A stretch of DNA of 64,000 nt from Sedimentisphaerales bacterium (GCA_963666285.1 OY762711.1), one strand, 5' to 3'; positions 20,902-46,661 are shown, counted from the first letter of the stretch. Numbers and translations: made by a program. The notes: generated by a model not told the origin, from the sequence alone.

Positions 20902-23900
20902 ATGGACATTACAACCATGATCAATGAATTGGGCCAATGGTTCTGTAAAGAAAACTTTGCTATGCTGGTTCAGTCGAGCGTGTTAATAGCAGTACTAATG
21001 CTGCTGGATCTAGTTATCAAGAAACGAGTTAGAGCGGTTATTCGATATTGCATCTGGATGCTGGTACTGGTGAAGCTGGTACTGCCGACGAGCATATCTA
21101 TGCCTACCGGTTTAGGGTACTGGATAAGCGACCAATGGTCGATGGAAGCCAGAACAGTCGAACAGCCGAACAGTCGAGAAGAAATTTCAAAAGAAGGGAC
21201 ACGGGAGGATAGCGAAGCAATTGCGGCGGCGGACAGTATGGTCACAGATGGTGTACGGGTGGTACGCAACGGCGCGAAGCGTAACGGCGAAGAGTTAACT
21301 GAAACGGCGGATAGCGGCGGTATAGCGGCTAACAGCGGAAAGGTATCGAATGGTAACGGCGATGCAGCGGCGGAAGACCAAATAAGTGGAGTGACAGGCT
21401 TACGGGATATTAATATTTTGCAAAATGACGTAAGTGCAGAAAAAAAATCAGCGGGCCTACCAGATGGGATGAAGTCTGAAGTAAGAAGTCTGAAGTCTGA
21501 AAATGAAGAAATTAAGAATTCAGAATTTAAAAATCAGGAAGAAGAAGAAAAGGGATATGGGATAAGGGATAAGGGATTAGGGAATGTGCTCGCTAACGCT
21601 CGGTTAATTAATAATGAAGAAGCAACCACGAAAAAGGGGACGGAGAATCTGAAGTCTGAAGTAGGAAGTCTGAAGTCTGAAAATGAAGAAAAACAGTTAG
21701 CGGCCGGGAATCAAATAACCTGGCAGGGCTGGATATTTATGGGCTGGTCGGTTGGTGTGCTGGTGCTGGTGAGTGTGCTGGTGCAGCGGTTCTGGTTTGT
21801 TAAGAGCCTGGTAGCGCAGAGTGAGCCGGTGAAGGCCGAGCGTATAAGGCAATTGATGGCTGAATGCCGGGAGCTGGTCAGAGTAAGCAGTAAAGTAGAG
21901 CTAAGGCTGACACGTAATATGATGAGTCCGGCGGCGTGCGGATTGTGGAAGCCTGTGATACTTATGCCGGAAGAGCTGCTGGAGAAATTGAGTAAGGACC
22001 AGCTGAAAGCGGTACTGCTGCATGAGCTGTCGCATATCAAGCGAGGCGACCTGTGGGTGAACCTGGCACAGACACTTTTGCAGATAGTGTACTTCTTTAA
22101 CCCCCTGCTCTGGATCGCAAATGCGATAATTCGCAATGTGCGAGAGAAAGCGGTAGATGAGTTGGTGATCGCGAAGCTAGAAGGTGATGCCGGGATGTAC
22201 AGCAGTACACTGGTTGATATAGCCGAGATCGCATTTTCCCGACCGCATTTCAGTTTGAGGCTGGTCGGGGTAGTCGAGTCCAAGAAGGCGTTGAAAGACC
22301 GTATAAAGCATATCTTATCGAGGAAGTTTCCCAAATCAGCCAGATTGGGTGCGGCGGGTATTGTGAGTATAATTGTACTGGCGGCGGTGCTGCTGCCGAT
22401 GGCGAGCGGGCAAGGTGCACAGGATAAATATATCTTTGAATATGGAGATGGCCATAAAATCGAGCTGGTCGGAATATGCAGCTGGCCGCCAAACGGCAAC
22501 AAATGGCATAGTCCGGATGGTATGCCGCTGGATATAAAGATCCAGACCTCTGACAGCAGCGGTATAGAATCGGATGAGCCCGGCTATCAGCTGGCGTTCA
22601 GGTCTGACAAGGGAGCAGCGTTCAAGTTAGAGTATATCAAAGGCTGCAGAGCGAAAAGTGAGCTTGGCGTATTTGACAAAAATGAAATAACAGCTTTTAA
22701 GGCTCATATCAATGGCAATTTAAATAAAACCAATATTAGAATCGCGGTACCGGATGGCAACTGGGAAACGTCATGTTCGAGCAGATCGATAACAGGTACG
22801 AGCGGCCATAAAGTAGATGGTAAGCCGTTAATATTCGGCGGGATGCAGTCCGGCGATAATATGATTATTACCTGCAGTGATAATGTAGGCTATAAAAAAG
22901 CGAGCAGGATAGTTGTAATTGACAAAAGCGGAAAGATAGTTGACGGAAAATCAATCGCGGATACCGGTTTTAATAATGTTCGACAGCGGACAATAGAATA
23001 TAAGAACATTGGACCTGCCGATATTGATAAGATCGAATTTATGACATGTTCGTATAAGACACATACGTTTAAGAATGTGGTTTTGAAATCGATACCCAAG
23101 AATCTTCAGTTCAGAATCGAGGGAACTGTAACTGATGCAGATACGGGCGATCCGATTGCCGGTGCAAAGGTAGGCGATGTTTCAGGCTATAACAGCGGCA
23201 GGTTTTCTACTACGACAGACGAAAACGGTAAATACGAATACCTGACATATTATGAAGAGCATAATATTGTTGCGAAAGCAGCCGGTTATGAAACTAAGCA
23301 GGAGATACTGCTGACGAAGCTGATCGGGAAAGAAGATAAAAAGACTATTGATTTTAATCTGAAGGATGAAAGAAAACAGGGATCAGGGATCGGGGATAAG
23401 GGATTAGGGAAAGTGCTCGCTAACGCTCGGTTAATTAATAATGAAGAAGCAACCACGAAAAAGGGGACGGAGAATCTGAAGTCTGAAGTAGGAAGTCTGA
23501 AGTCTGAAAGTGAAGAAATTAAGAATTCAGAATTAAAAATTAAGGAAGAAGAAGAAGAAGAAGAAGAAGAAAAGGGATATGGGATAAGGGATAAGGGATT
23601 AGGGAATGTGCTCGCTGACGCTCGGTTAATTAATAATGAAGAAGCAACCACGAAAAAGGGAATGGACAATCTGAAGTCTGAAGTAGGAAGTCTGAAGTCT
23701 GAAAAAGAATATATTAAGAAAGAAGAAAATAACCCAAAAGAAAGTGAAGAGCTAAGAACTAAGTATACTTTGTCAGAATTATTAAAAAATATACAAAATG
23801 CTGATAATGTTAGAAGTCAGCTACTATCGAATTCACAAGGTAAAGCATTGATCAATATCACATTAAGTAAAATGGCTACCAACGGGAAAGGTAAGCTACA

Positions 23901-26900
23901 GGATGAGTCTGTCAAGAAGTTTGATACAGACGACTATAGCTGCGTTATTGACAAAAACGGTAATTTCACCATAGACTGGTACCAGAGCGTTGTCAAAAGA
24001 AGGTTTGATTTACATTCTGTCGATCAACTAAACAATACAACACAGGCTAAGCCACTATGGTCAAATGTTGACGCACGCACTTTTATTGACCCTAATAAAT
24101 GGATAGTTTATGATGCGATAAAAGATGAATGTTCTGCAAAAAACGCAAAAGCACGAGCTAAGCATGCAACAAATCCGCTATCGATAATATTTGATTTTGA
24201 TATTGAACGACTTTACAGCGTAAACCTTCATTCTCAAATCCGAAACATTGTCCTCTTGTATGCAAATAATGGAACTAAGCCTAAAATAGCTGCTGAGACC
24301 GTTAACGGTATACCCTGTATTAAGATTTCAATCTTTAAAGAAGCTGAAAATGATAATGGCAACATAATGAATAAGCTAATTGAGTTCTGGGTTTCACCGG
24401 AGATGGGACATTCGCTGATTAAATATAGATTTTCTATGGGCAAATGGTCCCAAGGAATAGACCTCCCCCTTTGGCAAAGTTATGATGCAAGCTATATAGA
24501 GTCCAAAGAAAATCATGGAGTGTGGCTGCTTAATAAGCTGGAAATGTCACATAAAGATATTACGATGGGCAATATTGAAACTCTTCGGGTAGAGTTTGTT
24601 GAGACAGAGATTGATACTGCTATTTCTGGTGAAGTATTTACTACCAAGGGTTTGGGCGTAACAGATAAGACTAAGTTTGTTGATAAATTGATGGAAGAGA
24701 AAGAAAGTCAGAGATATGGCGAAGAAATTAAGAAAGAAGAATTAAAAATTAAGAAAGAAGAAGAAGAAAAGGGATATGGGAAGGAAAACATAAAGGATGA
24801 AGTATCAAGTATCAAGTATAAAAAGAATTCAAACACGAAAGACGGAAAAGATGCGGAAATGGGGACGGACCCCATTAATTCATTGGATATTAAACAAGAA
24901 TGGAAAACAATTGCAGAATCATATAAAGTGAATTCCAATATTCCGGTGCAAGTTGCTTCAGTGGCAACGGATTACGGACAGGTAGTCTTTGGAAATGCGT
25001 ACAGTAAAGATGATGGAGCCTGGATATCAACAACTGACGATATTGACAGAAATATTTGTGAGGTACGCATTGTCGCAATCGATATCGATGGTAATATATT
25101 ACTTCAAAATGGCGGAGGAAGCAGCACTGTAAACAAAACAAATACACTGCAATGTCGATTTGACACTGAATTGAGCAAAGTCAGTCTTTTTGAAATTCAG
25201 ATCAGGAATAATGAAACCACAAAAGATGCAGAAGCTGAAATTAATATAGAAACGATTAAGGGATGGGTAATAGATTATTATAAAGATTATGACCTGGAGC
25301 ATCCGAGTGATCGAATATTGAAAAGAAGATTCCTCGAATGGAATGAACCGGCAGTTGACAGCAGCAACCGACATCTGATAAATTGCACGGTTGAAGAGAC
25401 AAGCCGGAAAAGCGGAGATGATATTATAGTTATCAAGGGCGAGGACTTTACCTTTAACCCGGACGGCAGTTGTGCATCGAAGAAGAAAACAAACACAAAT
25501 TCACTATTTGATTATATCGCGAGCGATATTGTCGGTAGATACATAAGAAACAATATAGATGATGGCTATAGCTGGAAAAGTTATGTTGAGAAAGGAAATT
25601 TAGGAACAGATGAAAATGGTAACTATACATATAGGATTAAATATGAGTTGAGATATAATGATAGCAGCTATTCTTATACATATTTCACGAAAACATTTAC
25701 GGTGAATCCGGATTACGAGATAATTGCGATTGAAGAACTGCCGAAGGAGCTGACCAGTTATGATAAACGCAGGATTGCGAACATGGTGAGTGAATACAGA
25801 GAGAAGATGAGGAAAAGGGATATTGCCGGGATACTTGAGATGCTGGTGATTGAGGATGATAAACATCTGGAGATGGTTAAGCAATATCTTGAAGAAACTT
25901 TATACGGGAAATGGTCAGATTGGAATTTTTATTCAGAAGAGAATAATAAGTTCGTTGACGTTTATGAAGATGGTAATAATAACTTTGAAGCCTGGACACT
26001 GACTAAATCTTTGGATGATAAATGGACTATAGGAGTGATACCGGTAAGGTATAAGAATGGGGAATTTAAGCTTGACAACTTTAACAAGGAAACAATAGAA
26101 AAGTGTAAAATAATTAAGACAACAGATATAGACAGTATGGGCAAGATATTGCAGCAGAAGAATGCCGAGGGATGGGTTCATGCCGAAGGAAAAGAACTGA
26201 AGAAGCTTTATCTGGATAAGATAACTCATGAACAGAGAAGCCTGGCGACATTAAGCGTTGCTGATAAGTACAAATTAGAGATGATGAGATTTTGTACAAG
26301 AGAAGAAATTGAGAAACGGTTGAACGAACTTGAGAGTATGACACCGGAAGAGCTGAAGGAGAAAATGATATCGGAAGCCCTACTACGACCAGCTCAGAAC
26401 AAAGCGGCAAGAGGAGAGAAGTCTGAAGTAAGAAGTCTGAAGGCTGAAAGTGAAGAAATTAAGAATTCAGAATTAAAAATTAAGGAAGAAGAAGAAAAGG
26501 GATATGGGGTGGAAAACATAAAGGATGAAGTATCAAGTATCAAGTATAAAAAGAATTCAAACACGAAAGACGGAAAAGATGCGGAAATGGGGACGGACCC
26601 CTTTAATTCAACCTATCTGCAAAATTCCGGCAGTATATGGGATCTGCACAAGACAGACAGGATGCAGGATATCTTTATGCTTGACCTGGAAACGGGGCTG
26701 AAAGCGAAGCTTAAAGATATCGCTGATATCGAACAGCTGAAAAGGACACAAGAATCATTCAACGCAGGTGATATCTATTATTGCTATGATCAACAGCCAT
26801 GGCTGGGGATAGTTCAAGAAGCACATTTCGCGAATGGAAATATAGAATTTGACCCGGCTTTGAAAAGGACAGTAATCAGCGGGTTAAACAATATTATTGT

Positions 26901-29900
26901 TATAACTAAAGATAACAGGACGTTCGATATAAACTTCAGCTATTCAGATGAGAATGGCTGTATGATAAAATACCGAGAGATAGCGGCAGGTGAACCGATG
27001 CCGAAGATTAAGTTCAAGGCGCAGGTTAGCACAGAAATTCGGTTTGCCGCTATTGACAATAAGGCCGTGCCAGGTTATGACAATTCAGACTGCAGCATAG
27101 TCAGTAAAGATGAATATGAAGAGATTATCGAAAAAACTAAAAAGGATAGTAAAGGCAGGTTAATTACAGCACCTAACGTAACATTATTTGACGGGGAAAA
27201 AACGGACATTTCGTTATCGACTGAAATATTTCGCCAACTAGGATATGATAATATGGATATCCGGTTTACTCCTTATGTAATGGATAATAATATAGTATCT
27301 CTTGCGGTCAAATTCAATCGGGAAATAGACAGCGGCAGACGGGCCGAAATACAAAAATATGTCAGGTTTGAAGCTGGTCAATATGGCGTACTGCCTCTAA
27401 AGAATATTATCGGGATTGATTACCTGATGATTGTCAATTGTCAGATTATTGAGCCTGACGATGGCAGCAACGGTAATCATGGCAGCTGGGAAAAAGATAA
27501 AAAGGAGAAAAGTGATCCCCTATTCGATAGAGAGTACCTGGGCGAGTGGAAGATGCCAGAGCTAGATATTAAAGAGGGAAAGAAAATTAAAAGCTTAAGG
27601 CTGAACATAAAAGATAACGGTACTATGACGATCAGATATATCGATATGAATGGAGATACAATATTACTTGATGCAGATTATGATGTTCAGGATGGCATGG
27701 TCATAGCCGGGAACGGGGATAATATCTACGTAAGATGCTATTTCAAAGATGATATATTTTCAGCTGAGATGCCTGAATTTGATATGACAGTACTGTTGGA
27801 ACAAGTGATGCCGGAAGCTAATTTAAAGACTGACGGCGAAGAAATTAAGAATTCAGAATTAAAAATTGAGGAAAATATAAAGGATGAAGTATCAAGTATA
27901 AAGTATAAAAAGAATTCAAATACGAAAGATGGAAAAGATGCGGAAATGGGGACGGACCCCATTAATTCACTGGATATTAAACAAGGATGGAAAACAATTG
28001 CAGAATCATATAAAGTGAATTCCAATATTCCGGTGCAAGTTGCTTCAGTGGCAACGGATTACGGACAGGTAGTCTTTGGAAATGCGTACAGTAAAGATGA
28101 TGGAGCCTGGATATCAACAACTGACGATATTGACAGAAATATTTTTGAGGTACGCATTGTCGCAATCGATATCGATGGCAATATATTACTTCAAAATGGC
28201 GGAGGAAGCAGCACTGTAAACAAAACAAATACACTGCAATGTCGATTTGACACTGAATTGAGCAAAGTCAGTCTTTTTGAAATTCAGATCAGGAATAACG
28301 TAGAAATGGGGACGGACCCCATTAATTCAACGTTCAAAACAGTTGTACTTAAAAATTCAATCCAGGCGATCAATTTAAGTAATAATCAGAAAACATATGA
28401 TTTTTATGTACTGGATATGGCAAGCGGAAATGTGAAAGAGTACGAAAATGTACAAGATTTCAATCATTTGACAAATATCCTGAATAGCGTCGGCAAAGGA
28501 GATATGGCGTTTGTATTTACTAAAGACAGATGTATGCCGGTAATCAACTGGGTTCGGAATGCTCGGCCTGTTGAAAAAGCCGATGAAAGACAGAGCCACT
28601 ACTTCTACAGTGCGAAGTGGTATCCGGACGATAATATAATTACCAATGAAGGCAAACGATATTATGTATATTTCAAGGATTGCGATGAAAACGGGTGTGA
28701 GATATATTACAGGGAGATCATGCCGGGAGAATCGCTGCCGAAAAATGTCGAGAGAGAATATGTCAATGAAAATAACGAGATAGTATCAATAGAGATGGAA
28801 CTGTTCAGTCTGAATGGAACTGAATACAGTATAGACACAGAAAGGATAATTAAAAACGGCGACGAGCTGGATGAGACCCAGATAAGTTTTCTGCGGAAGA
28901 TCTCAGAAAGTGGAAAAGTGAATTTCTGGGAAAAGCTGCCAAAGATAAAAGCGTTTAAGACAGAAAAGGTAGATATGAGCTCACTAGGGGCAATATTGCC
29001 AGCCGACAAATTCCAAATAGACAAGCTGACCGTCATCCCAAATGATATAAACGGCGGAAGTTTATGCCTGGATATTGATCTTGCCGGTTCGTTTCATGCC
29101 GTCGACTATACAGGCGATAACAAAACAGATGCGATAATGAGTTCGTTCACACGCAAGGTTACGAATATTATGCCTGAAAACAAGGCGGCATTGCTGGAGC
29201 TGTGCGGAGTAAATGGCATTCATTATTTCATGCTGGTTAAAATGCAAAATGCAGGCAGTGATCTGAAGGATGAAAATGAAGAAATTAAGAATTCAGAATT
29301 AAAAATTGAGGAAGAAGAAGAAGAAGAAAAGGGATATGGGATAAGGGATAAGGGATTAGGGAATGTGCTCGCTGACGCTCGGTTAATTAATAATGAAGAA
29401 GCAACCACGAAAAAGGGGACGGACCCCATTAATTCCTTTACCCCCTCCTGGATTGGACTGCCAGAAGGGTGGGACAGAGATAAGGCCTGGAAAGAGATAA
29501 CCAGCTACCTGGAAAATAATATAAAAAGAGATTTGCCGGAAAGTAATATAAGTTATTTCAATGATGACATAAAGCATGGACCGGTTGAAATATCGTACCA
29601 TACACAAAAATATCAAGTTGAAAGTCCGGTATCTAAGGCAAGAATTGATACAGAGAAACAAACAGAAACAGGCCCTCAGCCAGACGGACTGATAATCAGG
29701 ATATATCTAACTGAAAATATTGAACAGATGGTAAGGCCGCAAACTCTGGATAAAACTTTCTGGAAAGTTGATTTCCTGAAAATATATCTGCCTGAACTTA
29801 AATTGTTCCTGATGGCCAACATATCATACGGCAATCAAACCGACCAGACACTTCTCAGTAAATATAGAAATTTAAACGGAATAATGGCTAACATTATCGA

Positions 29901-32900
29901 AAGTACGCAAACCACAAAAATCACAGAAGTGGATAACCAAAGGTACGATACAGTTGATAAAAAATATATGGATAAGATGGCGGGTGAGGTTTTGTTCTGC
30001 GGTGAGTATAAGCATATAAGCCGGAGACGTGAGATAGAGACGCCCAGCACACTGCTTGTAACTCGAGGGGCAGACGGAGAGATAAACGCTTTGGCGTATA
30101 TGCCGTGGATGGGCAGCTATGACATGGCGGTTGGTGATAAAGAAGGTAAGCTGTCGGGCTATTTTACGTGGCGGGCAGAGTCGGAAGGTAAGCCCGGGTT
30201 CGATACGGAGCTGGAGCTGGGTGATGGCAAGGCGGTATTGAACCGGCACGGGATACGTGAAGACAAGGTAAATGTGGAGTTGAGTGTGGCGGAAGGAGCG
30301 AGGTTTAGCCCAAATAGCAGGCCGGACAGCTATTGTGCAGATAATATATTTATGCGCGGGCTGGATATAGCAGTTGAAACGAGTAAGGAATTTGAAGTTT
30401 ACGACTGGGATAACAGCGGCGAGGCGATGGCGAGCTATACGATAGAGGTGTATAATGCCGGGAAAGAAGAGGTTGTGGTGCCGGCGGGCACGTTTGAGGC
30501 GAACCATTATGTGCTGACGCAGACCAGTACCGGAAATACGTGGTATAAGAAACAAAACGGACATATTACCGATTATTGGGTGATGGATGACGGGATAATT
30601 GTGCGGGTGCTTCGACACAGGGAGCCGTATGAAATACAGTTAATGAAAAATGAAAGAATACAGGGATCAGGTTTCAGAGGTCAGGGATCAGGGAAGGTGC
30701 TCGCTGACGCTCGAGCTAATAATACTGTATCTAAAGGGGAATATGAGATATGCGGTACTGTAACAACAGAAATGTCAGAAGGTCGCTGGGAAGAGTTTTT
30801 TGCCAGAATGGATGCCGCCAAGACAGAAAAAGAGCTGAATGATATTGTAACGTCAGAGAGGCAGCCAGGAAAAGAACCAGCGGCAAATGTTGAGGTAAAA
30901 CTAATCGGCCGGTATGGGAATAAACCGTTTGAGCGAATAACATCAACCGATAATAATGGCAATTACTGGTTCAAAGACCTGCCGATCGGCAGTTACAGAA
31001 TATCATGCCAAGATAACATTGTTTATAATCGAACCGGCAGTATAGTGACAATGGTCGGTGAAGGAGATAAACCGATAGAGTTTGTTTTGTCCGGTAAGAA
31101 GAGAGCCGAGATGGATATCGAACTTCGTGATAATAACCTGCTGACTGTAACAGGGAGAGTACTTGATCAAAAAGGCAGGCCAATCACAAATGCTGTTGTA
31201 ACCGGGACAAGTACCCCACTTGAAAATGGCGGGATAGGCGAAACAAGCGAACAAACGAGGATTTTCAGTCCGCAGATAATAACCGGCAAAACTGATGCCG
31301 AGGGCAGGTATCAGCTGGCAGGGTTTGAAGCAGCCCATTATATAAACGTATTTCGCAGTTTGATCAATACGAATAAGGATGCACGCGGACCATATAAATT
31401 CTTTGCTGATATTACGGTACGGGCGGATGGGTATGTGCCGGCTGAGAGGAAAGCGTACAGAGTTCCGCTGGCAGGTGAAGAACAGCTATATCGTGCCAGG
31501 CGGCTGCTGAAAGCATATGAGAAATTGGATACTGATGCCAAAGTGAAGGAAAACCCTGAGCCGGTATGGCCGTTTGCGAAATGTGAAGGTTCAAAGCTGG
31601 TTGGTGTAGATATAGTAATGAAGTCTGAAAGAATAAGTGAAGAACTAAGAACTAAGAGTGAAGAGTTCAGGAATCCCCCTACGGCGGAAGCTAATTTAAA
31701 GACTGACGGCGAAGAAATTAAGAATTCAGAATTAAAAATTAAGAAAGAAGAAAATGCAAATACAGCAGTTGGAAATGATGAGCTAGTCGTTGAAGATGCG
31801 GAAAAAGAGACGGTCAGCATAAATTCCAGTTTAATTTTTTCAGAATCTGCATATGACAAGATGAAAAAAGAGCTGGTTCAGGAGACCGCGGAAAATACAA
31901 AAGAGTCTTCTATCGATCAATTTGTCGGTATCTGGGAAAATCCGGGATTTATCGGTAACGATGAAGGAAGGCCAAAGTACACATACTTACTGATAATATA
32001 CGAAGACGGAAAAGTCATACATGAAGAACTCGAGCTGGGCGTTTATAAAGTTGAAGAAGGAAAATATGATATAAAACAGAACGCCATTATTATCTGCGGC
32101 AGCAAGGGTGAAGAATATGCAATTTGCAAGATAGACAAAATCGGGAAACTAATTGTTGCCCAAAAAGCATATTCAATATCAACCAGATATAATAAAATCA
32201 TGTCAACAACAGACATATCTACCAAAACAATGAAGCAATGGTTCAGCTTGCGGTCTGTAGTACCATTTTTAGGTAAATGGTATCTGTTTAATCATATCAT
32301 AGTAGATAACATTGGAAATAATTCATCTCTGGTTAAAAGTGCAGAGTGTAAGTTTAATAATGACTCGACTTTTGATATTACATTAGACGATGGAACAGGA
32401 CAGGATGCGATTTCTGGTTTTCAGTGTAACTTCAAAGACGGTAAAATTAATATTTTGATGGGCAATTCCATCTTTGGTGTATGCCGTATCGATGACGGCG
32501 ACCTGATAATCGAACAGCCAAACCTTGGAACGCGAATGATATTTAAACGAGAGAAGCCATCAGATAAAAAAGAACTGACAGAGGCGGATAAGGGAGAGAT
32601 AAAGGCGTTGGTGCTAAAGTTCTGGCGAAAGATACGAGAGAAGGACATGGATGCCCTGATAAGCATGCATATTATCGAAAGTAACGAGCATCGAGAGCAG
32701 CTGGAGAAATATCTGGGGATGATATTGGACGATATTAGACCGGGCGATCCGGGGTATCCGAGTGAAGAGAATTTGCGGATAGTTGATGTTTTTGCCGAAA
32801 ATGATTATTTTGCGGCTACATTACTGCAAAAGGTATCCGATGAATGGATAGTGAGGGATATCCTGGTGAAAGAAGAGGCCGGCGAGTATAAGATGAATAT

Positions 32901-34743
32901 GATGACGCCTGATTACCTGGAACAGATGTTGGTAGTCAAGACAGCAAGCGGAGAAAAAATCGCAGAAAAGATAAAAGAGAAGAATATCGAGATATGGGAG
33001 AGGTTTGATGACAAAAAGCTGAACGAGGTATATAACAGTTTAATAGCCGGCCAGGAAAGAGGGATAATCGCGGCGAAATATGCGAAGGAAAACGGGATGA
33101 AGCTGGTGAGTGTGTTTACTGAAGAAGTGATACGTAAGCGGCTGGAAAAGCTGAAGGCATTGACTCCGGAAGAGCTGAAGCGGGAGATATTGAGTGGAAG
33201 TGACCCGATGAACATTAAAGTTGAAGAACAGGAAAGCGGTAGAGAAGAAAAAGAAAGGCTTAAAGCTGAAAAGCCATCTGCGGAAAGTGGTTTTGGGCCG
33301 GTGGATTTTGAAGGGTTTTACCCGGATAGTGAAGATGGCGGCAGGAAACTGGATGAATTGATGGCGGCGAAAGATCGCGAGCTGCGGGCTGCGGACGAGA
33401 TAATAGAGACGGTACGAAACGGGCTGCGGCGGTATAGCGGCCGGGAAAATGTGCTGCGGTGGATTGGCAATATGTTTATCTGGGGTAAGGAGCCGCAGAA
33501 TATAAAGGCGATTGAGCTGATGTACCATGCAAGCGAATCGAAGGATTTCGGGACGGCGGTTTATTTCGGGCTGTCGGTGGTAGATGATATGACAGCTGAG
33601 ATAATCGCGGCAATGGGCGAGGTGGCGATGGAGACGGACGATTATCATAACCAGATCGGTCGGATACACTGGGGTTGTAAGAATCGCGGCAAGGTGGATG
33701 AGCTGACAGAGTATATAAAGCAGTATCTCAGAGATGAAGACCCGGCAAAACGGGAAAAGGCAAAGGATCTGATAGATTATTTTGCTGACAGTAAGGCGTT
33801 TATGGCAAAGAAAGCGGAAGAATATAAAAAAGAGATGGAGCAGAAATATGCCGGGCGGAAGGATGAGTTTAAGGAAAGATTGCTGACGGGCAGCTCTAAA
33901 GAGCGTATGTCGGTGCTGAAAGAGGAAGGCTTATTTACTATACTGGATGAATCGTTTATCGACGGGCTGGCGGCGTGTCTGAAAGACAAGGACGACGATG
34001 TTCGCAACCAGGCGGCGCGGATACTGGGCAATAAATTCGTATGGAGCGGTAAGGAACAGAATGAGCGGGTGATCGAGCTGCTGACCGCCCTGCTGGATGA
34101 TCCATCGCGTGAGGTTCGGTATACGGCGAATTATTTTGGCTTGTCGACGGTGAGCAAGCCGAGTGAAAAGCTGGTTGGGAAAATGCTGGAGACGGTGCTG
34201 GATGACCGGGAGATCAATTATTACGGGCGTGCAATTGGCGGAGTGCGTCGGAACAGTAAGTCGAGCGATGAGATTTTGAAGGGCTGGATGGAAGCCGGGG
34301 GTGAAAAAGCGGTAAAGGCATATGAGATATACGAGGATGTTTTGGGCAAACCGCTACCGAAAGAATATGCGGAGCGTTATGCCGGGCAGAAGTCTGATGT
34401 GCATGCCGGAGCGGCGGCGATGATATTCAGACTTGAACCGATTGGCAAGGAAGAATTGAGTCAGACTGTCTTGAGCTGTCTGAATGATAATAACCTGTTG
34501 GGGAAAGCGAGCGAGCTGTATATCATTGAGAAGCGTGAATCGGCGGTTGGAGTGGTAATATGTGAGAACCTGGCCGACAGAAACGCGGTGCGAGATGCGC
34601 TGGCGAAGAAAGGTTTGACAACACAGGGCTATGTGCATGGGATGATAGGCGTTGTCGGCAGCGGCTGGATGGAGCAGGGTAATCTTGACAAGATCAGGGA
34701 ACAATACAAACAAGATAAAGTAAGAATAAACAATGTGCGGTAA
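20902..34743 (+). CDS. Giant BlaR1/MecR1-like M56 metallopeptidase receptor (4613 aa) with modular ectodomain
   Basis: N-terminal TM helices, SPAACGLWKPVILMP, HELSHIKRGD zinc motif at 22021, YFFNPLLW, REKAVDE and LKDRIKHIL. About 4100 aa of modules follow, including carboxypeptidase-regulatory-like Ig, secretin-fragment-like, lipocalin-like, VPAGTF (DUF3108-like) and HEAT-like regions. Confidence 0.9.
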   Translation: MDITTMINELGQWFCKENFAMLVQSSVLIAVLMLLDLVIKKRVRAVIRYCIWMLVLVKLVLPTSISMPTGLGYWISDQWSMEARTVEQPNSREEISKEGTREDSEAIAAADSMVTDGVRVVRNGAKRNGEELTETADSGGIAANSGKVSNGNGDAAAEDQISGVTGLRDINILQNDVSAEKKSAGLPDGMKSEVRSLKSENEEIKNSEFKNQEEEEKGYGIRDKGLGNVLANARLINNEEATTKKGTENLKSEVGSLKSENEEKQLAAGNQITWQGWIFMGWSVGVLVLVSVLVQRFWFVKSLVAQSEPVKAERIRQLMAECRELVRVSSKVELRLTRNMMSPAACGLWKPVILMPEELLEKLSKDQLKAVLLHELSHIKRGDLWVNLAQTLLQIVYFFNPLLWIANAIIRNVREKAVDELVIAKLEGDAGMYSSTLVDIAEIAFSRPHFSLRLVGVVESKKALKDRIKHILSRKFPKSARLGAAGIVSIIVLAAVLLPMASGQGAQDKYIFEYGDGHKIELVGICSWPPNGNKWHSPDGMPLDIKIQTSDSSGIESDEPGYQLAFRSDKGAAFKLEYIKGCRAKSELGVFDKNEITAFKAHINGNLNKTNIRIAVPDGNWETSCSSRSITGTSGHKVDGKPLIFGGMQSGDNMIITCSDNVGYKKASRIVVIDKSGKIVDGKSIADTGFNNVRQRTIEYKNIGPADIDKIEFMTCSYKTHTFKNVVLKSIPKNLQFRIEGTVTDADTGDPIAGAKVGDVSGYNSGRFSTTTDENGKYEYLTYYEEHNIVAKAAGYETKQEILLTKLIGKEDKKTIDFNLKDERKQGSGIGDKGLGKVLANARLINNEEATTKKGTENLKSEVGSLKSESEEIKNSELKIKEEEEEEEEEKGYGIRDKGLGNVLADARLINNEEATTKKGMDNLKSEVGSLKSEKEYIKKEENNPKESEELRTKYTLSELLKNIQNADNVRSQLLSNSQGKALINITLSKMATNGKGKLQDESVKKFDTDDYSCVIDKNGNFTIDWYQSVVKRRFDLHSVDQLNNTTQAKPLWSNVDARTFIDPNKWIVYDAIKDECSAKNAKARAKHATNPLSIIFDFDIERLYSVNLHSQIRNIVLLYANNGTKPKIAAETVNGIPCIKISIFKEAENDNGNIMNKLIEFWVSPEMGHSLIKYRFSMGKWSQGIDLPLWQSYDASYIESKENHGVWLLNKLEMSHKDITMGNIETLRVEFVETEIDTAISGEVFTTKGLGVTDKTKFVDKLMEEKESQRYGEEIKKEELKIKKEEEEKGYGKENIKDEVSSIKYKKNSNTKDGKDAEMGTDPINSLDIKQEWKTIAESYKVNSNIPVQVASVATDYGQVVFGNAYSKDDGAWISTTDDIDRNICEVRIVAIDIDGNILLQNGGGSSTVNKTNTLQCRFDTELSKVSLFEIQIRNNETTKDAEAEINIETIKGWVIDYYKDYDLEHPSDRILKRRFLEWNEPAVDSSNRHLINCTVEETSRKSGDDIIVIKGEDFTFNPDGSCASKKKTNTNSLFDYIASDIVGRYIRNNIDDGYSWKSYVEKGNLGTDENGNYTYRIKYELRYNDSSYSYTYFTKTFTVNPDYEIIAIEELPKELTSYDKRRIANMVSEYREKMRKRDIAGILEMLVIEDDKHLEMVKQYLEETLYGKWSDWNFYSEENNKFVDVYEDGNNNFEAWTLTKSLDDKWTIGVIPVRYKNGEFKLDNFNKETIEKCKIIKTTDIDSMGKILQQKNAEGWVHAEGKELKKLYLDKITHEQRSLATLSVADKYKLEMMRFCTREEIEKRLNELESMTPEELKEKMISEALLRPAQNKAARGEKSEVRSLKAESEEIKNSELKIKEEEEKGYGVENIKDEVSSIKYKKNSNTKDGKDAEMGTDPFNSTYLQNSGSIWDLHKTDRMQDIFMLDLETGLKAKLKDIADIEQLKRTQESFNAGDIYYCYDQQPWLGIVQEAHFANGNIEFDPALKRTVISGLNNIIVITKDNRTFDINFSYSDENGCMIKYREIAAGEPMPKIKFKAQVSTEIRFAAIDNKAVPGYDNSDCSIVSKDEYEEIIEKTKKDSKGRLITAPNVTLFDGEKTDISLSTEIFRQLGYDNMDIRFTPYVMDNNIVSLAVKFNREIDSGRRAEIQKYVRFEAGQYGVLPLKNIIGIDYLMIVNCQIIEPDDGSNGNHGSWEKDKKEKSDPLFDREYLGEWKMPELDIKEGKKIKSLRLNIKDNGTMTIRYIDMNGDTILLDADYDVQDGMVIAGNGDNIYVRCYFKDDIFSAEMPEFDMTVLLEQVMPEANLKTDGEEIKNSELKIEENIKDEVSSIKYKKNSNTKDGKDAEMGTDPINSLDIKQGWKTIAESYKVNSNIPVQVASVATDYGQVVFGNAYSKDDGAWISTTDDIDRNIFEVRIVAIDIDGNILLQNGGGSSTVNKTNTLQCRFDTELSKVSLFEIQIRNNVEMGTDPINSTFKTVVLKNSIQAINLSNNQKTYDFYVLDMASGNVKEYENVQDFNHLTNILNSVGKGDMAFVFTKDRCMPVINWVRNARPVEKADERQSHYFYSAKWYPDDNIITNEGKRYYVYFKDCDENGCEIYYREIMPGESLPKNVEREYVNENNEIVSIEMELFSLNGTEYSIDTERIIKNGDELDETQISFLRKISESGKVNFWEKLPKIKAFKTEKVDMSSLGAILPADKFQIDKLTVIPNDINGGSLCLDIDLAGSFHAVDYTGDNKTDAIMSSFTRKVTNIMPENKAALLELCGVNGIHYFMLVKMQNAGSDLKDENEEIKNSELKIEEEEEEEKGYGIRDKGLGNVLADARLINNEEATTKKGTDPINSFTPSWIGLPEGWDRDKAWKEITSYLENNIKRDLPESNISYFNDDIKHGPVEISYHTQKYQVESPVSKARIDTEKQTETGPQPDGLIIRIYLTENIEQMVRPQTLDKTFWKVDFLKIYLPELKLFLMANISYGNQTDQTLLSKYRNLNGIMANIIESTQTTKITEVDNQRYDTVDKKYMDKMAGEVLFCGEYKHISRRREIETPSTLLVTRGADGEINALAYMPWMGSYDMAVGDKEGKLSGYFTWRAESEGKPGFDTELELGDGKAVLNRHGIREDKVNVELSVAEGARFSPNSRPDSYCADNIFMRGLDIAVETSKEFEVYDWDNSGEAMASYTIEVYNAGKEEVVVPAGTFEANHYVLTQTSTGNTWYKKQNGHITDYWVMDDGIIVRVLRHREPYEIQLMKNERIQGSGFRGQGSGKVLADARANNTVSKGEYEICGTVTTEMSEGRWEEFFARMDAAKTEKELNDIVTSERQPGKEPAANVEVKLIGRYGNKPFERITSTDNNGNYWFKDLPIGSYRISCQDNIVYNRTGSIVTMVGEGDKPIEFVLSGKKRAEMDIELRDNNLLTVTGRVLDQKGRPITNAVVTGTSTPLENGGIGETSEQTRIFSPQIITGKTDAEGRYQLAGFEAAHYINVFRSLINTNKDARGPYKFFADITVRADGYVPAERKAYRVPLAGEEQLYRARRLLKAYEKLDTDAKVKENPEPVWPFAKCEGSKLVGVDIVMKSERISEELRTKSEEFRNPPTAEANLKTDGEEIKNSELKIKKEENANTAVGNDELVVEDAEKETVSINSSLIFSESAYDKMKKELVQETAENTKESSIDQFVGIWENPGFIGNDEGRPKYTYLLIIYEDGKVIHEELELGVYKVEEGKYDIKQNAIIICGSKGEEYAICKIDKIGKLIVAQKAYSISTRYNKIMSTTDISTKTMKQWFSLRSVVPFLGKWYLFNHIIVDNIGNNSSLVKSAECKFNNDSTFDITLDDGTGQDAISGFQCNFKDGKINILMGNSIFGVCRIDDGDLIIEQPNLGTRMIFKREKPSDKKELTEADKGEIKALVLKFWRKIREKDMDALISMHIIESNEHREQLEKYLGMILDDIRPGDPGYPSEENLRIVDVFAENDYFAATLLQKVSDEWIVRDILVKEEAGEYKMNMMTPDYLEQMLVVKTASGEKIAEKIKEKNIEIWERFDDKKLNEVYNSLIAGQERGIIAAKYAKENGMKLVSVFTEEVIRKRLEKLKALTPEELKREILSGSDPMNIKVEEQESGREEKERLKAEKPSAESGFGPVDFEGFYPDSEDGGRKLDELMAAKDRELRAADEIIETVRNGLRRYSGRENVLRWIGNMFIWGKEPQNIKAIELMYHASESKDFGTAVYFGLSVVDDMTAEIIAAMGEVAMETDDYHNQIGRIHWGCKNRGKVDELTEYIKQYLRDEDPAKREKAKDLIDYFADSKAFMAKKAEEYKKEMEQKYAGRKDEFKERLLTGSSKERMSVLKEEGLFTILDESFIDGLAACLKDKDDDVRNQAARILGNKFVWSGKEQNERVIELLTALLDDPSREVRYTANYFGLSTVSKPSEKLVGKMLETVLDDREINYYGRAIGGVRRNSKSSDEILKGWMEAGGEKAVKAYEIYEDVLGKPLPKEYAERYAGQKSDVHAGAAAMIFRLEPIGKEELSQTVLSCLNDNNLLGKASELYIIEKRESAVGVVICENLADRNAVRDALAKKGLTTQGYVHGMIGVVGSGWMEQGNLDKIREQYKQDKVRINNVR
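21471..21690 (+). repeat. In-frame linker repeat L1
   Basis: Encodes KSEVRSLKSE-EEIKNSEFK-EEEE-KGYGIRDKGLG-NVLANARLINNEEATTKKGTENL-KSEVGSLKSE. Confidence 0.9.
23356..23763 (+). repeat. In-frame linker repeat L2 (two tandem units)
   Basis: Near-identical DNA to L1 and L7. Contains (GAA)9 and ends with SEELRTK. Confidence 0.9.
24718..24882 (+). repeat. In-frame linker repeat L3
   Basis: Encodes EEIKKEELKIK-EEEE-KGYG-ENIKDEVSSIKYKKNSNTKDGKDAEMGTDPINS. Palindrome at 24861-24873. Confidence 0.9.
24784..25211 (+). repeat. Copy 1 of a ~428-bp near-identical internal duplication
   Basis: Matches 27871-28298 at offset 3087. By eye, 4 substitutions in the ~330-nt domain part. Confidence 0.95.
26418..26610 (+). 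repeat. In-frame linker repeat L4
   Basis: Encodes KSEVRSLKAE-EEIKNSELKIK-EEEE-KGYG-ENIKDEVSS...MGTDPFNS. Palindrome at 26589-26601. Confidence 0.9.
27813..27969 (+). repeat. In-frame linker repeat L5
   Basis: Encodes EANLKTDG-EEIKNSELKI-ENIKDEVSS...MGTDPINS. Palindrome at 27948-27960. Confidence 0.9.
27871..28298 (+). repeat. Copy 2 of the ~428-bp internal duplication
   Basis: Matches 24784-25211. Confidence 0.95.
28303..28329 (+). repeat. Minimal linker L6 (palindrome site only)
   Basis: GAAATGGGGACGGACCCCATTAATTCA, identical to 27943-27969. Confidence 0.9.
29261..29435 (+). repeat. In-frame linker repeat L7
   Basis: Encodes LKDENEEIKNSELKI-E7-KGYGIRDKGLG-NVLADARLINNEEATTKK-GTDPINS. Palindrome at 29415-29427. 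Confidence 0.9.
30643..30723 (+). repeat. In-frame linker repeat L8
   Basis: CAGGGAT-type heptamers, then AGGGAAGGTGCTCGCTGACGCTCGAGCTAATAA (QGSGFRGQGSGKVLADARANN). Confidence 0.8.
31618..31755 (+). repeat. In-frame linker repeat L9
   Basis: Encodes KSERISEELRTKSEEFRNPPTA-EANLKTDG-EEIKNSELKIKKEEN. Confidence 0.85.
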
Positions 34744-34750
34744 CAGGTGC

Positions 34751-34879
34751 CAGGGAAGGAAAGCCGCGAAGCGGTAAACAAATCAATAACTCAAACTGAC
34801 CGATGGTCAGTTTGAGAGGTATTAGTTATTAGTTATTTGGTATTAGGGAAGGTTTGCCGCAAAGCGGCAGGCTAATTAA
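34751..34879 (+). repeat. Intergenic composite repeat (hairpins plus GTATTAG-type heptamers); may also act as a terminator
   Basis: Perfect 12-bp stem CTCAAACTGACC-GAT-GGTCAGTTTGAG (34790-34816), a heptamer tract, then AGGGAAGG-TTTGCCGCAAAGCGGCA-GGCTAATTAA. Confidence 0.75.
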
Positions 34880-35291
34880 ATCATTAATGTAACAATTTGC
34901 ATTGAATTATGTTACCGCAATAAAAAATGTAAAATCGGTCACTTTGAGTCAATAAAAATAATCCGGGAAATTTAGCTGGAAATCGGTTATAAAGGAACCA
35001 TGTGCTTGTGTTGGGCATTGTTTTTTGACATTAGCAAAAAAAGGAATGCAAAGTTATGACTCGGCTTATTACTATAATAATATCATTTTCATTATTCTGG
35101 ATATGCAGTTGCAGCAATAGGCAAGATAGCAGTTCGGTTGATATTCGAAGTCTGAATTCAGAAAATAAGCGGGCAGACAACGGAAGAGATAAAGTATAAG
35201 TATGGATATAAATACTTATGACCGGCGATTGGGTGCAGATCGAAAAAATAATCGGAACAGAAAATATAAAGGCACACTGAAAATTGAAGTG

Positions 35292-40387: not shown

Positions 40388-40424
40388 AAATGGATTATGC
40401 AGGAAGCGTACCAATTGACGTAAG

Positions 40425-40456
40425 AAAAAAGCCTGTATCCAGATGATACAGGCTTT
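40425..40456. terminator. Intrinsic terminator between convergent genes
   Basis: AAAAAAGCCTGTATC-CAGAT-GATACAGGCTTT. Confidence 0.75.
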
Positions 40457-40515
40457 GGGGATTTATAATTGTCTTCGGCGAAGGATAAAATCACAAGCGA
40501 GGAGCTTGTACTATT

Positions 40516-42330: not shown

Positions 42331-42487
42331 TTTAAATTCCGTTTTATTTGATTTACTCTTTGTGCAATTCCGCACTTTTGATTGTTCAACGTTATTTGCA
42401 AAGGCCCATTTGGGCGTTTATTGCAGCTTAAAAACTGCGAAATTAACTCTTATGCAAACGAATCTTTTTCCTGACTAATAAGCAAAA

Positions 42488-43516: not shown

Positions 43517-43610
43517 AATATTAAACTCTTTGTTTGCTGTTAGTTAATTAAGTTTTCAATCTATATTAAGAAAAACCGGCCCAAACAGTCAAAATGTTCG
43601 AGCCAACTGT

Positions 43611-44480
43611 TTAGCCGATAGTATGGTCTTCGATAAGTTCGTGTATCAGTTCCCTGATGCCATCATCGGTCGGCTCAATGCTTTTATGTTCACTGGCGGT
43701 AAGAACAACACTCTGGATGCGGTTGACCTTGGTCGGGCTGCCGCTCTTGCCACACCACTGCAAATCAGCTTCGAGATGGTCGAGATCCCATTCGTCAATA
43801 AGCAATCCGCGATCCCTAAGCGATTCGATGTCAGCGTCTGTGCCGCCGGTCGCCTTGACCTCGGTAGGACCTTTCGCCTTTTTGAACCACATCATCTGGC
43901 GAGAAACTGCCGGACGAGGGTCATTAGCGGTATCAAGAACAGTAAGGAGAGCCGGTAACTGGCACTGAACCTTTTCCCAGCCGGAACCAACACCGCGTTT
44001 GGCAGTGATAGTTTTGCCGTCAAGCTCCAGTTCTTCAACATAAGTTATCTGAGGGAATCCCAGCTTTTCAGCAGCCTGAGGTCCAACCTGAGCGGTATCA
44101 CCGTCAATCGCCTGGCGACCACAGAAAACGAGGTCTACATCTTCGATTTTCTTGACAGCACAGCTAAGAATATAGCTGGTAGCAAGAGTATCACTAGCAG
44201 CAGCACGACGGTCTGTAACAAGAATCGCACGGTCAGCACCACGGAACAGTCCCTGTCGCAGCACATCGCAGGCAGATGGCAGGCCCATAGTGAGAACAGT
44301 CACAGTACCGCCATGTTTAGCTTTTACAGCAAGAGCCATTTCCAGGGCATTTAAATCTTCAGGATTGAAGACAGCCGGCAAAGCAGCACGATTGACAGTA
44401 CCATCGTCATTCATGGCTTTTCCAGTAACTGCCTTAGTGTCTGGAACCTGTTTAACCAGTACAACACTGTTATAAGACAT
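43611..44480 (-). CDS. etfB: Electron transfer flavoprotein beta subunit
   Basis: VKQVPDT, NPEDLNALE, SDTLATS, CGRQAIDGDTAQVGP and GSPTKV. Confidence 0.95.
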   Translation of the reverse strand: MSYNSVVLVKQVPDTKAVTGKAMNDDGTVNRAALPAVFNPEDLNALEMALAVKAKHGGTVTVLTMGLPSACDVLRQGLFRGADRAILVTDRRAAASDTLATSYILSCAVKKIEDVDLVFCGRQAIDGDTAQVGPQAAEKLGFPQITYVEELELDGKTITAKRGVGSGWEKVQCQLPALLTVLDTANDPRPAVSRQMMWFKKAKGPTEVKATGGTDADIESLRDRGLLIDEWDLDHLEADLQWCGKSGSPTKVNRIQSVVLTASEHKSIEPTDDGIRELIHELIEDHTIG

Positions 44481-44895
44481 ATAAACCTCTCTTAAATGTT
44501 TACTTACGCACCAAGTGCAGAAGCGTTATTGCCATAGATAAGCGTACAACTTCCCTTATCAGCACTTTTAATATCAATTAACGTCCCGGCAGGTAGTCCG
44601 AGACTGGGTAATGATAAGTTAAAACTTAATAGAAGTCAACCTTCGATTTAGCGGTTTTAACGTTTCTAACACTGAAAATAAGGTTTTATGAGCAAAACAA
44701 GAGTAAAATATCATAGATAAAACCGGAATAATACCGTATAATACAGGGCTAATCTTAATGCAATCCAAATGAAAGCTTGAGATGTAATAGATAAGTAAAG
44801 AGTAAATATGACCTTTAAGTCACATCGAAAGACGGCAGGAAAGCCAACAGCGGCTAAACTAACACTGTAAACCAAATAATAATGGATAAAAAGGT

Positions 44896-46419
44896 ATGGA
44901 ACTTCCAGTAGTATCAATTGTAGGCAGGCCAAATGTAGGAAAGAGCAGTTTGCTGAACATTCTGGCAAAAGAGCGTATTAGTATTGTAGAAGATACGCCG
45001 GGCGTAACGCGCGACCGCGTAAGTGCGGTTATAGAGATGGACGGCAAGTATTTTGAGCTGGTCGATACAGGTGGTTATGGCATTGAAGACCATGACAACC
45101 TTACCGAGCATGTTGAAAACCAGATTATGTCTGCCCTGCTGCAATCTGATGTAGTATTATTTGTGGTAGATATCCGGAGCGGTATGCTGCCGCTGGACCT
45201 GAAGGTTGCCCAGCTGCTGCGAAAGGAGAAGCTGGACGTGATCCTGGTAGCGAACAAATCCGATTCGGTGGAGCTGGACGCCGGTGCAGGAGAATTCTAC
45301 AAGCTGGGTTTCGGCGAGCCGTTATGCATCTCCGCATTGCATGCCCGCAGGCGACAGGAACTGGTAGAAGAAATCCTTGACCGCCTGGAAGGGCGTAATA
45401 CCGAAAAGCCTCAAGAAGAAGCTATGAAGATAGCGGTTGTGGGTAAGCGAAATGTCGGGAAGAGCACATTCATCAACTCACTGGCCGGTGAAGAGCGAGT
45501 GATAGTGAGTGATGTCGCAGGTACAACAAGAGATGCGGTTGATATTCGATTTGAAAAAGATAACCGCACATTTATTGTTATCGATACCGCGGGAGTTCGC
45601 AAGAAGAACAAGATGAACGACGCTAACGGAATCGAGTTCTACAGCTATACCAGAGCAGTGAATTCGATCAAGCGAGCAGATGTATCACTGTTTTTTGTTG
45701 ATGCAGCTGAGCCAATATCACAAGTTGATAAGAAACTGGCACGATTCATTATCGATAATCATAAGCCGGTAATTATTGTTGTAAATAAATGGGACCTGGC
45801 AAAAGATCGGGCAGCAACCGAAGAATACAGTGAATATTTCGATAAGGTTCTGCCAGGTTTGAACTTTGCCCCGATATGCTTTATAACGGCAAAAGAGAGT
45901 AAGAACATCAATTCCCTGATCGACCTGGCGAGTAATATTTTCAAACAGAGCCGAACAAGAGTAACAACAGGTAAAATCAATAAGCATCTGAAAAACATTA
46001 CAGCAGAGCGTTCTCCATCAGTACGCAAAAAGATTGGTCTGCCAAAGATTTATTATGGCACCCAGGTTGCGGTTAACCCACCTACCGTACTGTTGTTTGT
46101 TAATAACCCTGATAGAATAGACGAAAACTACCAGCGTTTTCTGATTAACCGCATGCGAGATGTAATGCCTTGGGGAGAGGTACCTATCAGGCTGATATTG
46201 CGGGCACGAGATGAGAAAGTCGATATCGAGTTTGACTATAAACGTGAAGAGTCAATGGAAGGTTCTATCACAGAAGAGCAGTATCGTTCAGAAGCTGTCG
46301 ATGTTACATTTGAAATAGAAGTTCCGGATGAGCCGGAATATGACGGCAGTGAAGCAGAAGAATACAATGACGACGATTTTGATTACGAATCTGAAAAGGA
46401 CAGGCACGAAGGATTTTAG
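44896..46419 (+). CDS. der: Ribosome biogenesis GTPase Der (EngA)
   Basis: Two GTPase domains (GRPNVGKS/DTGG/NKSD and GKRNVGKS/DTAG/NKWD), a KH-like C-domain and an acidic tail. Confidence 0.97.
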   Translation: MELPVVSIVGRPNVGKSSLLNILAKERISIVEDTPGVTRDRVSAVIEMDGKYFELVDTGGYGIEDHDNLTEHVENQIMSALLQSDVVLFVVDIRSGMLPLDLKVAQLLRKEKLDVILVANKSDSVELDAGAGEFYKLGFGEPLCISALHARRRQELVEEILDRLEGRNTEKPQEEAMKIAVVGKRNVGKSTFINSLAGEERVIVSDVAGTTRDAVDIRFEKDNRTFIVIDTAGVRKKNKMNDANGIEFYSYTRAVNSIKRADVSLFFVDAAEPISQVDKKLARFIIDNHKPVIIVVNKWDLAKDRAATEEYSEYFDKVLPGLNFAPICFITAKESKNINSLIDLASNIFKQSRTRVTTGKINKHLKNITAERSPSVRKKIGLPKIYYGTQVAVNPPTVLLFVNNPDRIDENYQRFLINRMRDVMPWGEVPIRLILRARDEKVDIEFDYKREESMEGSITEEQYRSEAVDVTFEIEVPDEPEYDGSEAEEYNDDDFDYESEKDRHEGF

Positions 46420-46461
46420 TTAAGCTGCAACGCCTGCTGTAAACGAAGTTGTCTTAATAAA

Positions 46462-46539
46462 ACTTAGGGCGGTCAAGTGAGCAACCTAAGTAAGGTATTA
46501 GGTATTAGGGAAGGAAACGCCTTCGGCGAGGCTAATTAA
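46462..46539 (+). repeat. Intergenic repeat (same family as 34751-34879)
   Basis: ACTTAGG...CCTAAGT inverted pair, then AGGTATTAGGTATTAGGGAAGG-AAACGCCTTCGGCG-AGGCTAATTAA. Confidence 0.7.
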
Positions 46540-46661
46540 TTTTAGCTGACGCATATGTTGGCTCCTTTTGTAATCGTTGCAATTATATATATTGTAATAT
46601 TTTATGAACGATATAAATAAAAACGAGACATAAAAAACAACGTTTTGAATGATAGTAGTAT

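Follow-up and report, generated by a model that had tools for sequence, protein, structure and literature searches.

Linkers derived from intergenic heptamer repeats in a giant BlaR1/M56-type gene of a Sedimentisphaerales bacterium, and their probable use as joints for domain exchange

Intergenic repeats that have been inserted in frame into genes, and are translated there as tolerated segments, have been described as Rickettsia palindromic elements, or RPEs (Ogata et al., 2000, as related in the accessible parts of PMC10969869 and PMC3184786). A second class of precedent is formed by tandem heptamers: the accessible text on the TAACTGA units of Beggiatoaceae, Cyanobacteria, and Bacteroidetes places them mostly between genes, stop-rich when read forward (MacGregor, 2015; PMC4679880), and GGGAATC heptamers are reported, in an account likewise available in part, from Xanthomonas and Nostoc (PMC4692102). 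As far as that account by MacGregor is available, forward repeats lie only at gene ends, internal ones are in reverse, and tolerance between protein modules is only speculated upon. In type I restriction-modification specificity genes, finally, domains are proposed, in the accessible portion of the report on domain movement (DoMo), to be moved, lost, or duplicated, within a gene as well as between genes, through recombination at flanking coding repeats (Furuta et al., 2011; PMC3077401). Here we describe a locus in a 64,000-nucleotide stretch of DNA from a Sedimentisphaerales bacterium (GCA_963666285.1 OY762711.1; hereafter the window, C1:4512001-4576000 of a 6.35-Mb genome), where a giant gene for a BlaR1/M56-type sensor-protease contains nine linkers that very probably derive from stop-rich intergenic heptamer repeats and that probably serve as joints for the exchange of domains.

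The giant open reading frame (ORF) runs as a single frame of 4613 codons (20902-34743; this and all other features given lie on the + strand unless noted) 3' of a gene for a BlaI/MecI-type repressor (20328-20723; Pfam Penicillinase_R, E 1e-30). Its product matches the Pfam families Peptidase_M56 (E 1.8e-46), CarboxypepD, and HEAT, carries a HELSH zinc motif, and has a modular C-terminal part of ~4100 aa; the match to the BlaR1 structures 8exs and 8exp is weak (E ~1e-6), and the nearest named M56 relative, from a Sedimentisphaeraceae bacterium, is 68% identical. Four membrane segments are predicted from hydropathy (aa 17-40, 43-68, 275-305, and 479-506), and by analogy with the topology of BlaR1 we take the loop at aa 75-270 and everything beyond aa 506 to lie outside the cytoplasm. 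AlphaFold, run without an alignment on aa 730-1278, returned a pLDDT of 33, too low to be informative. In the contigs of one sequencing run (X1, which may be the source sample) every unique segment between linkers is covered at 27-38x with no differences, and these short-read contigs end at the linkers; the gene pieces are thus real, and their order rests on the assembly alone.

The nine linkers amount to 581 aa, or 13% of the protein. They are chains of ~7 blocks, with a conserved order of blocks, and are composed of heptamer tracts (A, B, D, G, and I), a GAA run, a short GC-rich core, a 9-mer-like block, and a 19-nt hairpin, F; tracts and cores of 20-60 nt are chained in varying order. L1 (21463-21699; A-B-C-D-E-A) lies within the M56 unit, in the loop that connects membrane segments 2 and 3, the double linker L2 (23359-23769) directly 3' of a CarboxypepD-type domain. 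L3 (24697-24891) reads B-C-G-H-F; L4 (26413-26616) is L1/L2-like in its 5' part and L3-like in its 3' part, and L5 (27811-27975) is L9-like and then L3/L4-like. L6 (28297-28335) consists of the F hairpin only, L7 (29254-29442) is L5-like at its 5' end, L2-like in the middle, and has a 3' F hairpin like that of L3, L5, and L6, L8 (30646-30732) is a tract and core nearest to the tract-and-core block of a ~500-bp intergenic element family, and L9 (31621-31836) comprises a tract, a degenerate hairpin, block B, and a degenerate H/F. A tenth, decayed linker (25210-25251) is probable from a weak motif match to an E/H-type block. The linker peptides are of low complexity and K/E-rich, a composition that suggests flexible tethers as their probable function. 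By eye, neither terminal inverted repeats nor target-site duplications, the features of MITEs, are evident in the linker blocks. Weak repeat-like stretches in other loops of the giant gene (21139-21190, 29905-29940, and 33240-33280) may be older, decayed captures.

An earlier note on this DNA had claimed that the linkers share their architecture with non-coding repeats in the same window, and the strings it quoted, including those of L8, are all present where it had placed them. The common layout, AGGGAADG-N14-22-GGYTAATTAA, has six matches in the window (in the gene at 21579, 23406, 23601, and 29358; between genes at 34845 and 46507) against 0.00 expected in 100 shuffles, and 12 in the genome, eight of them intergenic and four in the giant gene. 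Some details require amendment. The core of L1 and of the first L2 copy reads TAAC rather than TGAC; the intergenic parallels at 34839-34879 and 46501-46539 agree in layout and differ in core; and the element between the blaI-type and M56 genes (20727-20766) resembles L9 only in the start of its tract and in a hairpin of similar type, closer matches to L9 lying elsewhere. The core at 34810-34882 folds as a hairpin (z -2.6), that at 46495-46542 only weakly (z -0.9), and the core found in the gene, a short direct repeat, not at all (z -0.9 and -1.6). Overall, two of three intergenic cores folded, together with the F block, at z -2.1 to -2.6, and the third, with the in-gene D and L9 cores, gave -0.3 to -1.6. 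The true intergenic kin of the in-gene core lie outside the window, in 43 copies, and all 19 that were extracted fall within the ~500-bp element family.

The likeness is not confined to one motif. With the giant gene and a second, paralogous M56 gene masked, BLAST matches all nine linkers to intergenic DNA, as against one of 60 control coding segments; 96 of 100 matches for L1 and 22 of 23 for L8 are intergenic, L6 being weak (1 of 3). Resampling the codons of the same protein by genome codon usage (200 trials, strict threshold) yields a mean of 0.07 period-7 tracts and a maximum of one, where 15 are observed, and at a looser threshold tract density is 15.2 per 10 kb in the giant gene and 0.07 in 2267 other genes. 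Of the heptamer units in the gene, those out of frame still open with a stop triplet in 44 of 54 cases, those in frame in none of 20; stop starts kept out of frame and absent in frame point to DNA of non-coding origin, a contrast tempered by the fact that the 15 tracts are copies of ~5 types, so that the stop counts are not independent. A profile built only from 42 intergenic cores finds 50 intergenic matches, one on another contig, and three inside genes, all three in the two M56 genes, and misses three of six known in-gene cores. The link between linkers and intergenic DNA is far beyond chance, and we regard an origin of the linkers from intergenic repeats as very nearly certain.

The earlier note's term, translated REP/STRR-like elements, is supported in part. 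Short tandemly repeated repetitive (STRR) sequences of cyanobacteria are heptamer-type repeats, and the heptamers here are STRR-like; a likeness to repetitive extragenic palindromes (REPs) in the strict sense is not established, the search for a cognate REP-associated tyrosine transposase (RAYT) having found none and the cores folding unevenly.

In the genome as called by a purpose-made gene caller (4563 ORFs), period-7 tracts number 181 between genes, 17 at gene edges, and 21 inside ORFs, a density of 185 per Mb intergenic and 3.9 per Mb in genes; the intergenic enrichment is found only at period 7, the other periods from 4 to 12 giving at most 13 tracts each. The giant gene holds 15 of the 21 internal tracts, and the other six lie in ORFs of 68-174 aa, five of them with a very low coding score. 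TAA, TGA, or TAG opens 677 of the 891 intergenic units; read forward, 122 of the 181 tracts have no open frame, and read in reverse, 164 have at least one. The layout is a tract followed by a core, solitary or chained into islands of 1-2 kb. Within the window the family is represented by the unit between the blaI-type and M56 genes, a short purine-rich tract with a small hairpin whose family has 16 intergenic and two in-frame M56 copies; by two tract-plus-hairpin units directly 3' of the giant gene's stop codon (34744-34779 and 34785-34879); by a tract-plus-core unit (46490-46539); and by a tract unit 83% like 34785-34847 (51156-51218). Nineteen copies of the ~500-bp element family (e.g., C1:713229, 5930301, and 422636) are 84-90% alike. 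Units resembling the family also flank the M56 locus of a relative whose M56 gene has none inside, which argues that the family is older and its capture lineage-specific.

Several side observations attach to these repeats. A palindromic block stands 5' of the heptamer tract at 34785-34812 and at 51156-51186, each time directly behind or overlapping a gene end. The ~500-bp elements stand at the head of mosaic islands, 1-2 kb long and made up of heptamer tracts and nested palindromes, some with recent insertion sequence (IS) copies, and an Rfam scan of two repeat islands gave no match. Most of the nine listed matches to the four-helix-bundle family PF05635, of ten in all (C1:8296, 42099, 45310, 45729, 5096210, 5863748, and 6020412 among them), have by eye a 7- or 10-nt tandem tract just upstream; those at 45310 and 45729 are a tandem duplication behind which a third copy begins, and the GxxExxY family PF13366, sought as a partner, was not found. 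Three further contigs (C2, C3, and C4), each of ~65-66 kb and two with ORFs of ~5000 codons, have ~100-nt elements in common with the chromosome.

Within the giant gene, near-identical and mosaic linkers stand beside saturated domains. At least 25 nt of exact sequence is common to 21 of the 36 linker pairs, and exact matches of at least 20 nt between linkers number 53, every one of them in frame and in a single phase. L7 agrees exactly with L5 for 36 nt, then with L2 for 107 nt, and finally with L3, L5, and L6 for 21 nt; L4 follows L2 for 53 nt and L3 for 91 nt; L5 follows L9 for 56 nt and L3 for 39 nt. Domains Y1 and Y2, both behind the same F block, are 24% identical with a synonymous divergence (pS) of 0.76, whereas linker blocks summed over up to eight copies give pS 0.17 and a nonsynonymous divergence (pN) of 0.08 (pN/pS 0.49, p = 0.09). 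In all, F is followed by four different sequences and preceded by three. Such low values beside such domains indicate that the linkers are younger than the domains or continually converted. It follows that the synonymous-site comparison proposed in the earlier note, although it did return low silent divergence, cannot separate selection at the DNA level from recent copying or gene conversion, which would suffice.

The same note had suggested that elements at domain boundaries supply homology for shuffling, and three linker-bounded rearrangements, of unequal strength, support this. The first is an internal duplication of 430 nt, 98% identical between its copies: copy 1 (24782-25211), a linker end with domain X, begins inside L3 and ends at the decayed linker, and copy 2 (27869-28298) begins inside L5 and ends at L6. 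The second concerns the module of domains X2, Y2, and Z2 (27934-29278; 1,345 nt), which recurs in run X5, a run of a different study whose label names another organism, on an 8554-nt contig at 96.2% identity, ungapped, in a different domain order and between L9-type linker DNA on both sides. Upstream stand an exact 67-nt match to L9 and nine other letters, downstream directly another L9-type stretch, both joints being in frame; a third L9-like linker, with 27 extra letters, lies further on. At equal depth in the same run the blaI-type gene is 86.1% and the start of the M56 gene 83.8% identical, on a contig that stops about where L1 would start. Because the module is more conserved than blaI, ends in linker DNA, and stands in another order, it is most simply read as a recent transfer by crossover in the joints. 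The third case is a 391-nt contig of run X4 in which L5 is joined to L7; the net change is -1503 nt (501 codons).

Other candidate variants were rejected. In contig 11 of run X3, letters of copy 2 occur at 24883 and 24899 in a copy-1 setting, which bubble collapse between copies 98% alike explains; a 6-nt GAA insertion at 26484 in run X1 is probably a mislaid L2 copy, and short strain joints with sides of 22-43 nt were disregarded as copies of intergenic repeats. Slippage by 7 nt as a source of phase variation, where a change of one unit would expose stops at a domain boundary, was set aside as well: the tracts are short and imperfect, and no 7-nt change occurs in the gene among the matches listed, contigs being unable to exclude rare slippage variants.

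The explanation that we favor runs as follows. The source is the genome's small intergenic repeats of three to six purine-rich heptamers, mostly opening with a stop triplet, and a short GC-rich core. In this lineage about seven such blocks came to stand in frame in extracytoplasmic loops of BlaR1/M56 genes; loop sequence can vary there so long as it is open and hydrophilic, and only versions with a non-stop in-frame unit were kept. The data show the non-coding origin, the avoidance of stops, the placement in loops and at domain boundaries, and the confinement to this lineage. From one junction the blocks would then have passed to others, and from one of two distant M56 paralogues to the other, by ectopic recombination or gene conversion. 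One common phase and exact matches of 25-107 nt imply that any linker-linker crossover is in frame, and so a crossover between any two linkers could delete, duplicate, or replace whole domains. On the strength of the internal duplication and the two variant contigs, we put at about two in three the probability that the linkers act as crossover sites, general-purpose joints for domain exchange, presumably through RecA-type recombination. A bolder version, in which domestication has turned the repeats into “translated introns” (interchangeable, self-propagating joints of one phase that make the extracellular part an array of cassettes, with domains that can be duplicated, lost, or traded between species), we offer only tentatively, as rather less likely to be right than wrong.

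A number of observations weigh against the joint reading. Four of the six M56 genes in the genome are tract-free, several junctions of the giant gene have no repeat linker, and nine of 61 other genes above 4.5 kb also contain internal exact matches of at least 25 nt. Relatives have these C-terminal domains too, attached to M56 by ordinary short linkers in one order or another, so that shuffling in this family does not depend on the repeats. The strain evidence consists of single assembled contigs, the longest pieces listed; the X4 joint has a depth of 4 and may be a chimera that the assembler formed through a shared 31-mer and that would automatically be in frame, and the assignment of the two X5 contigs to one organism rests only on their equal depths of 10.3 and 10.7. 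The full-length protein is a predicted product.

These points bear most directly on the rival that the linkers are passive passengers: repeats that invaded tolerant loops and were homogenised by gene conversion with no special part in rearrangement, surviving breaks being bound to fall between domains. Besides the relatives that shuffle domains without such linkers, it can call on the F hairpin, which is translated in frame (in either of two frames) within loops of three unrelated genes of this genome (C1:1089729-1091414, 1336137-1338239, and 5620706-5621356) and also in a radical-SAM-like gene of a congener (G002, locus L095), with no sign of shuffling; and it can call on paralogues with common linkers but without common domains. 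The distant paralogue at C1:6078597 (1262 aa) has linker blocks both in its loop and after its last membrane segment, and in its comparison with the giant gene there is a 24-nt exact match and no C-terminal domain in common at E 1e-6. Yet the 96% match in run X5 starts and stops inside linker blocks and runs on both sides, in register, into another linker type, the internal duplication begins inside a linker, and the mosaic linkers record crossovers within blocks. We therefore consider mere passengers unlikely.

The F hairpin also invites the idea of a dedicated system, in which a strand-specific enzyme (HUH/RAYT-like, or a reverse transcriptase) would write or move the repeats and would also cut, or switch template, at F, making the joints programmed sites of exchange. 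F forms a perfect hairpin (z -2.5), and L3, L5, and L6 carry a compensated variant of its arms; the arm variants of L4 and L7 resemble reciprocal arm recombinants; and the left half of F is joined to another block in L1 and L2. Relative to two orthologues each, F adds 0 to ~6 residues in the two genes tested, and so looks, from these alignments, to overwrite rather than lengthen its host. Moreover, all five in-gene tract types lie in the stop-rich forward orientation, although only 40 of the 281 open readings of intergenic units are forward. That bias would be explained equally by a strand-biased source or by selection for hydrophilic tethers, forward readings having a mean hydropathy of -0.72 and reverse readings one of +0.42, and the arm variants could be point mutations. 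No recombinase gene is seen beside either M56 gene. The five matches to the Y1 transposase family PF01797 (three IS200-like copies that score equally and share their ends, plus a broken and a partial one) have neither F nor tracts in the flanks listed, and no cognate RAYT was found in the genome, which is 97% complete. An enzyme of this kind is accordingly quite improbable.

A further possibility, raised by the earlier note, is that the gene grew by fusion across spacers, read-through of stops having joined separate genes so that each linker is a fossil spacer. The genome offers some encouragement: tracts favor the sense strand of flanking genes (86 vs. 33), 13 of 148 overlap the upstream stop and 35 of 148 lie within 30 nt of it, an element stands right behind the giant gene's own stop, and in a relative (locus L042, G012:C7) the C-terminus of a 346-codon frame runs through forward heptamer tracts, a case of 3' capture. 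The in-gene tracts are all stop-rich in orientation. Such 3' capture, by read-through at a gene end, could have been the entry route of the first blocks. As an account of the whole gene the idea is disfavored. L1 and one paralogue block are inside an M56 unit that is continuous in all relatives, which largely refutes fusion for L1: between two conserved motifs flanking L1 the giant protein has 284 aa, as against 147-209 aa in 18 of 20 relatives, two lacking a motif match. The flanking domains are already joined to M56 in relatives, without repeats. Exact matches between linkers, up to 107 nt, far exceed the best between linker and intergenic DNA (~30-75 nt at 76-100%), so the linkers are not nine independent spacers. 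Homologous domains end at the starts of L2, L3, L4, L6, and L9, and one begins near the end of L8. Fusion is thus very improbable, and invasion followed by spread, as the joint reading supposes, is in this comparison the strongly favored course of events. That the linkers are ordinary peptide repeats or an assembly artefact, as their low complexity and the breaking of contigs at linkers might suggest, and resemble intergenic DNA by chance, can be dismissed, for a 7-nt period is impossible from peptide repetition, the resampling and control comparisons speak otherwise, the unique segments are covered free of differences, and the same blocks recur in the paralogue and in another organism.

The captures are narrowly distributed. 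Inside the M56 frames of relatives there is one heptamer tract in 20 genes and none in 22 (one locus being common to the two sets), so that M56 genes do not, as a rule, show such capture; the single tract, at ~aa 996 just 5' of a CarboxypepD-type domain (locus L035, G010:C41), is possibly an independent capture. Exact copies of F occur in two of three congeners and in none of 57 other relatives searched. Profile searches with two linker alignments found the composite linker in none of 400 other genomes of the class with either. In a phmmer search of 1.84 billion representatives L7 matched only the giant gene and its paralogue, a set of 5.8 billion sequences held nothing beyond these two, and linker pattern scans of metagenome, genome, and viral contigs gave no match. 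For the module (27934-29277), metagenomes yielded 45 candidates, none confirmed, and 24 family genomes only heptamer-tract matches, in two of them; the C-terminal DNA has four matches at 64-66% in 300 order genomes, two candidates being scored per genome. Elsewhere in the window, an ORF of 4481 codons on the - strand (52972-64000, extending to 66414) has, in its window part, neither a Pfam match nor 25-nt internal exact repeats.

Domain shuffling among unrelated domains without introns is an old question in bacteria, in-frame homology between such domains being normally missing. The locus offers a concrete source of that homology: junk repeats in tolerant loops, purged of in-frame stops and homogenised to a common phase. 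If the joint reading is true, strain breakpoints would fall inside shared blocks, and recoding of the joints would freeze the architecture with the protein unchanged. On the bolder version, joint-bounded modules would move more easily and carry their joints along, possibly with a preferred crossover site at F, and the locus would be a bacterial counterpart of symmetric-exon shuffling, seen soon after its origin. Neither a multi-joint network of non-coding repeats with module exchange nor these genes themselves are described in the literature searched, which lay mostly outside subscription journals and did not extend to supplements.

With respect to known systems, then, the gene resembles BlaR1/MecR1 with BlaI in its upstream blaI, its M56 unit with an HEXXH motif, and its four membrane segments, and differs in having ~4100 aa of modular domains instead of a penicillin-binding domain, which is not among its Pfam matches. 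The linker blocks share with RPEs, as the available accounts portray them, the presence of copies both between genes and in frame inside them. An RPE is there a single palindrome of ~105-150 nt found in many unrelated genes, whereas here chained mosaics of short tracts and cores are homogenised within one gene and its paralogue; only the F hairpin behaves in an RPE-like way, and the length gain against relatives is large in the M56 loop and, for F, slight or nil in the two genes tested. Like the known heptamer repeats, to the extent that these are covered by the accessible reports, the tracts are tandem 7-nt units, few per set, mostly intergenic, strand-biased, and with forward stops in all frames; unlike them, forward tracts stand deep within a gene with the in-frame unit substituted, and many heptamers conform to one unit layout. 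The locus thereby realises the speculation, as it stands in the available text, that forward heptamer repeats may be tolerated between protein modules (MacGregor, 2015; PMC4679880). As in DoMo, on the available part of its description, domains are flanked by common in-frame DNA repeats; there, two or three equivalent DNA-recognition domains are involved, and here ~10 unrelated extracytoplasmic sensor domains, with flanking repeats that are recent and come from non-coding DNA, and with three events rather than many alleles. The precedents are the Rickettsia RPEs and DoMo, and the locus combines both known kinds.

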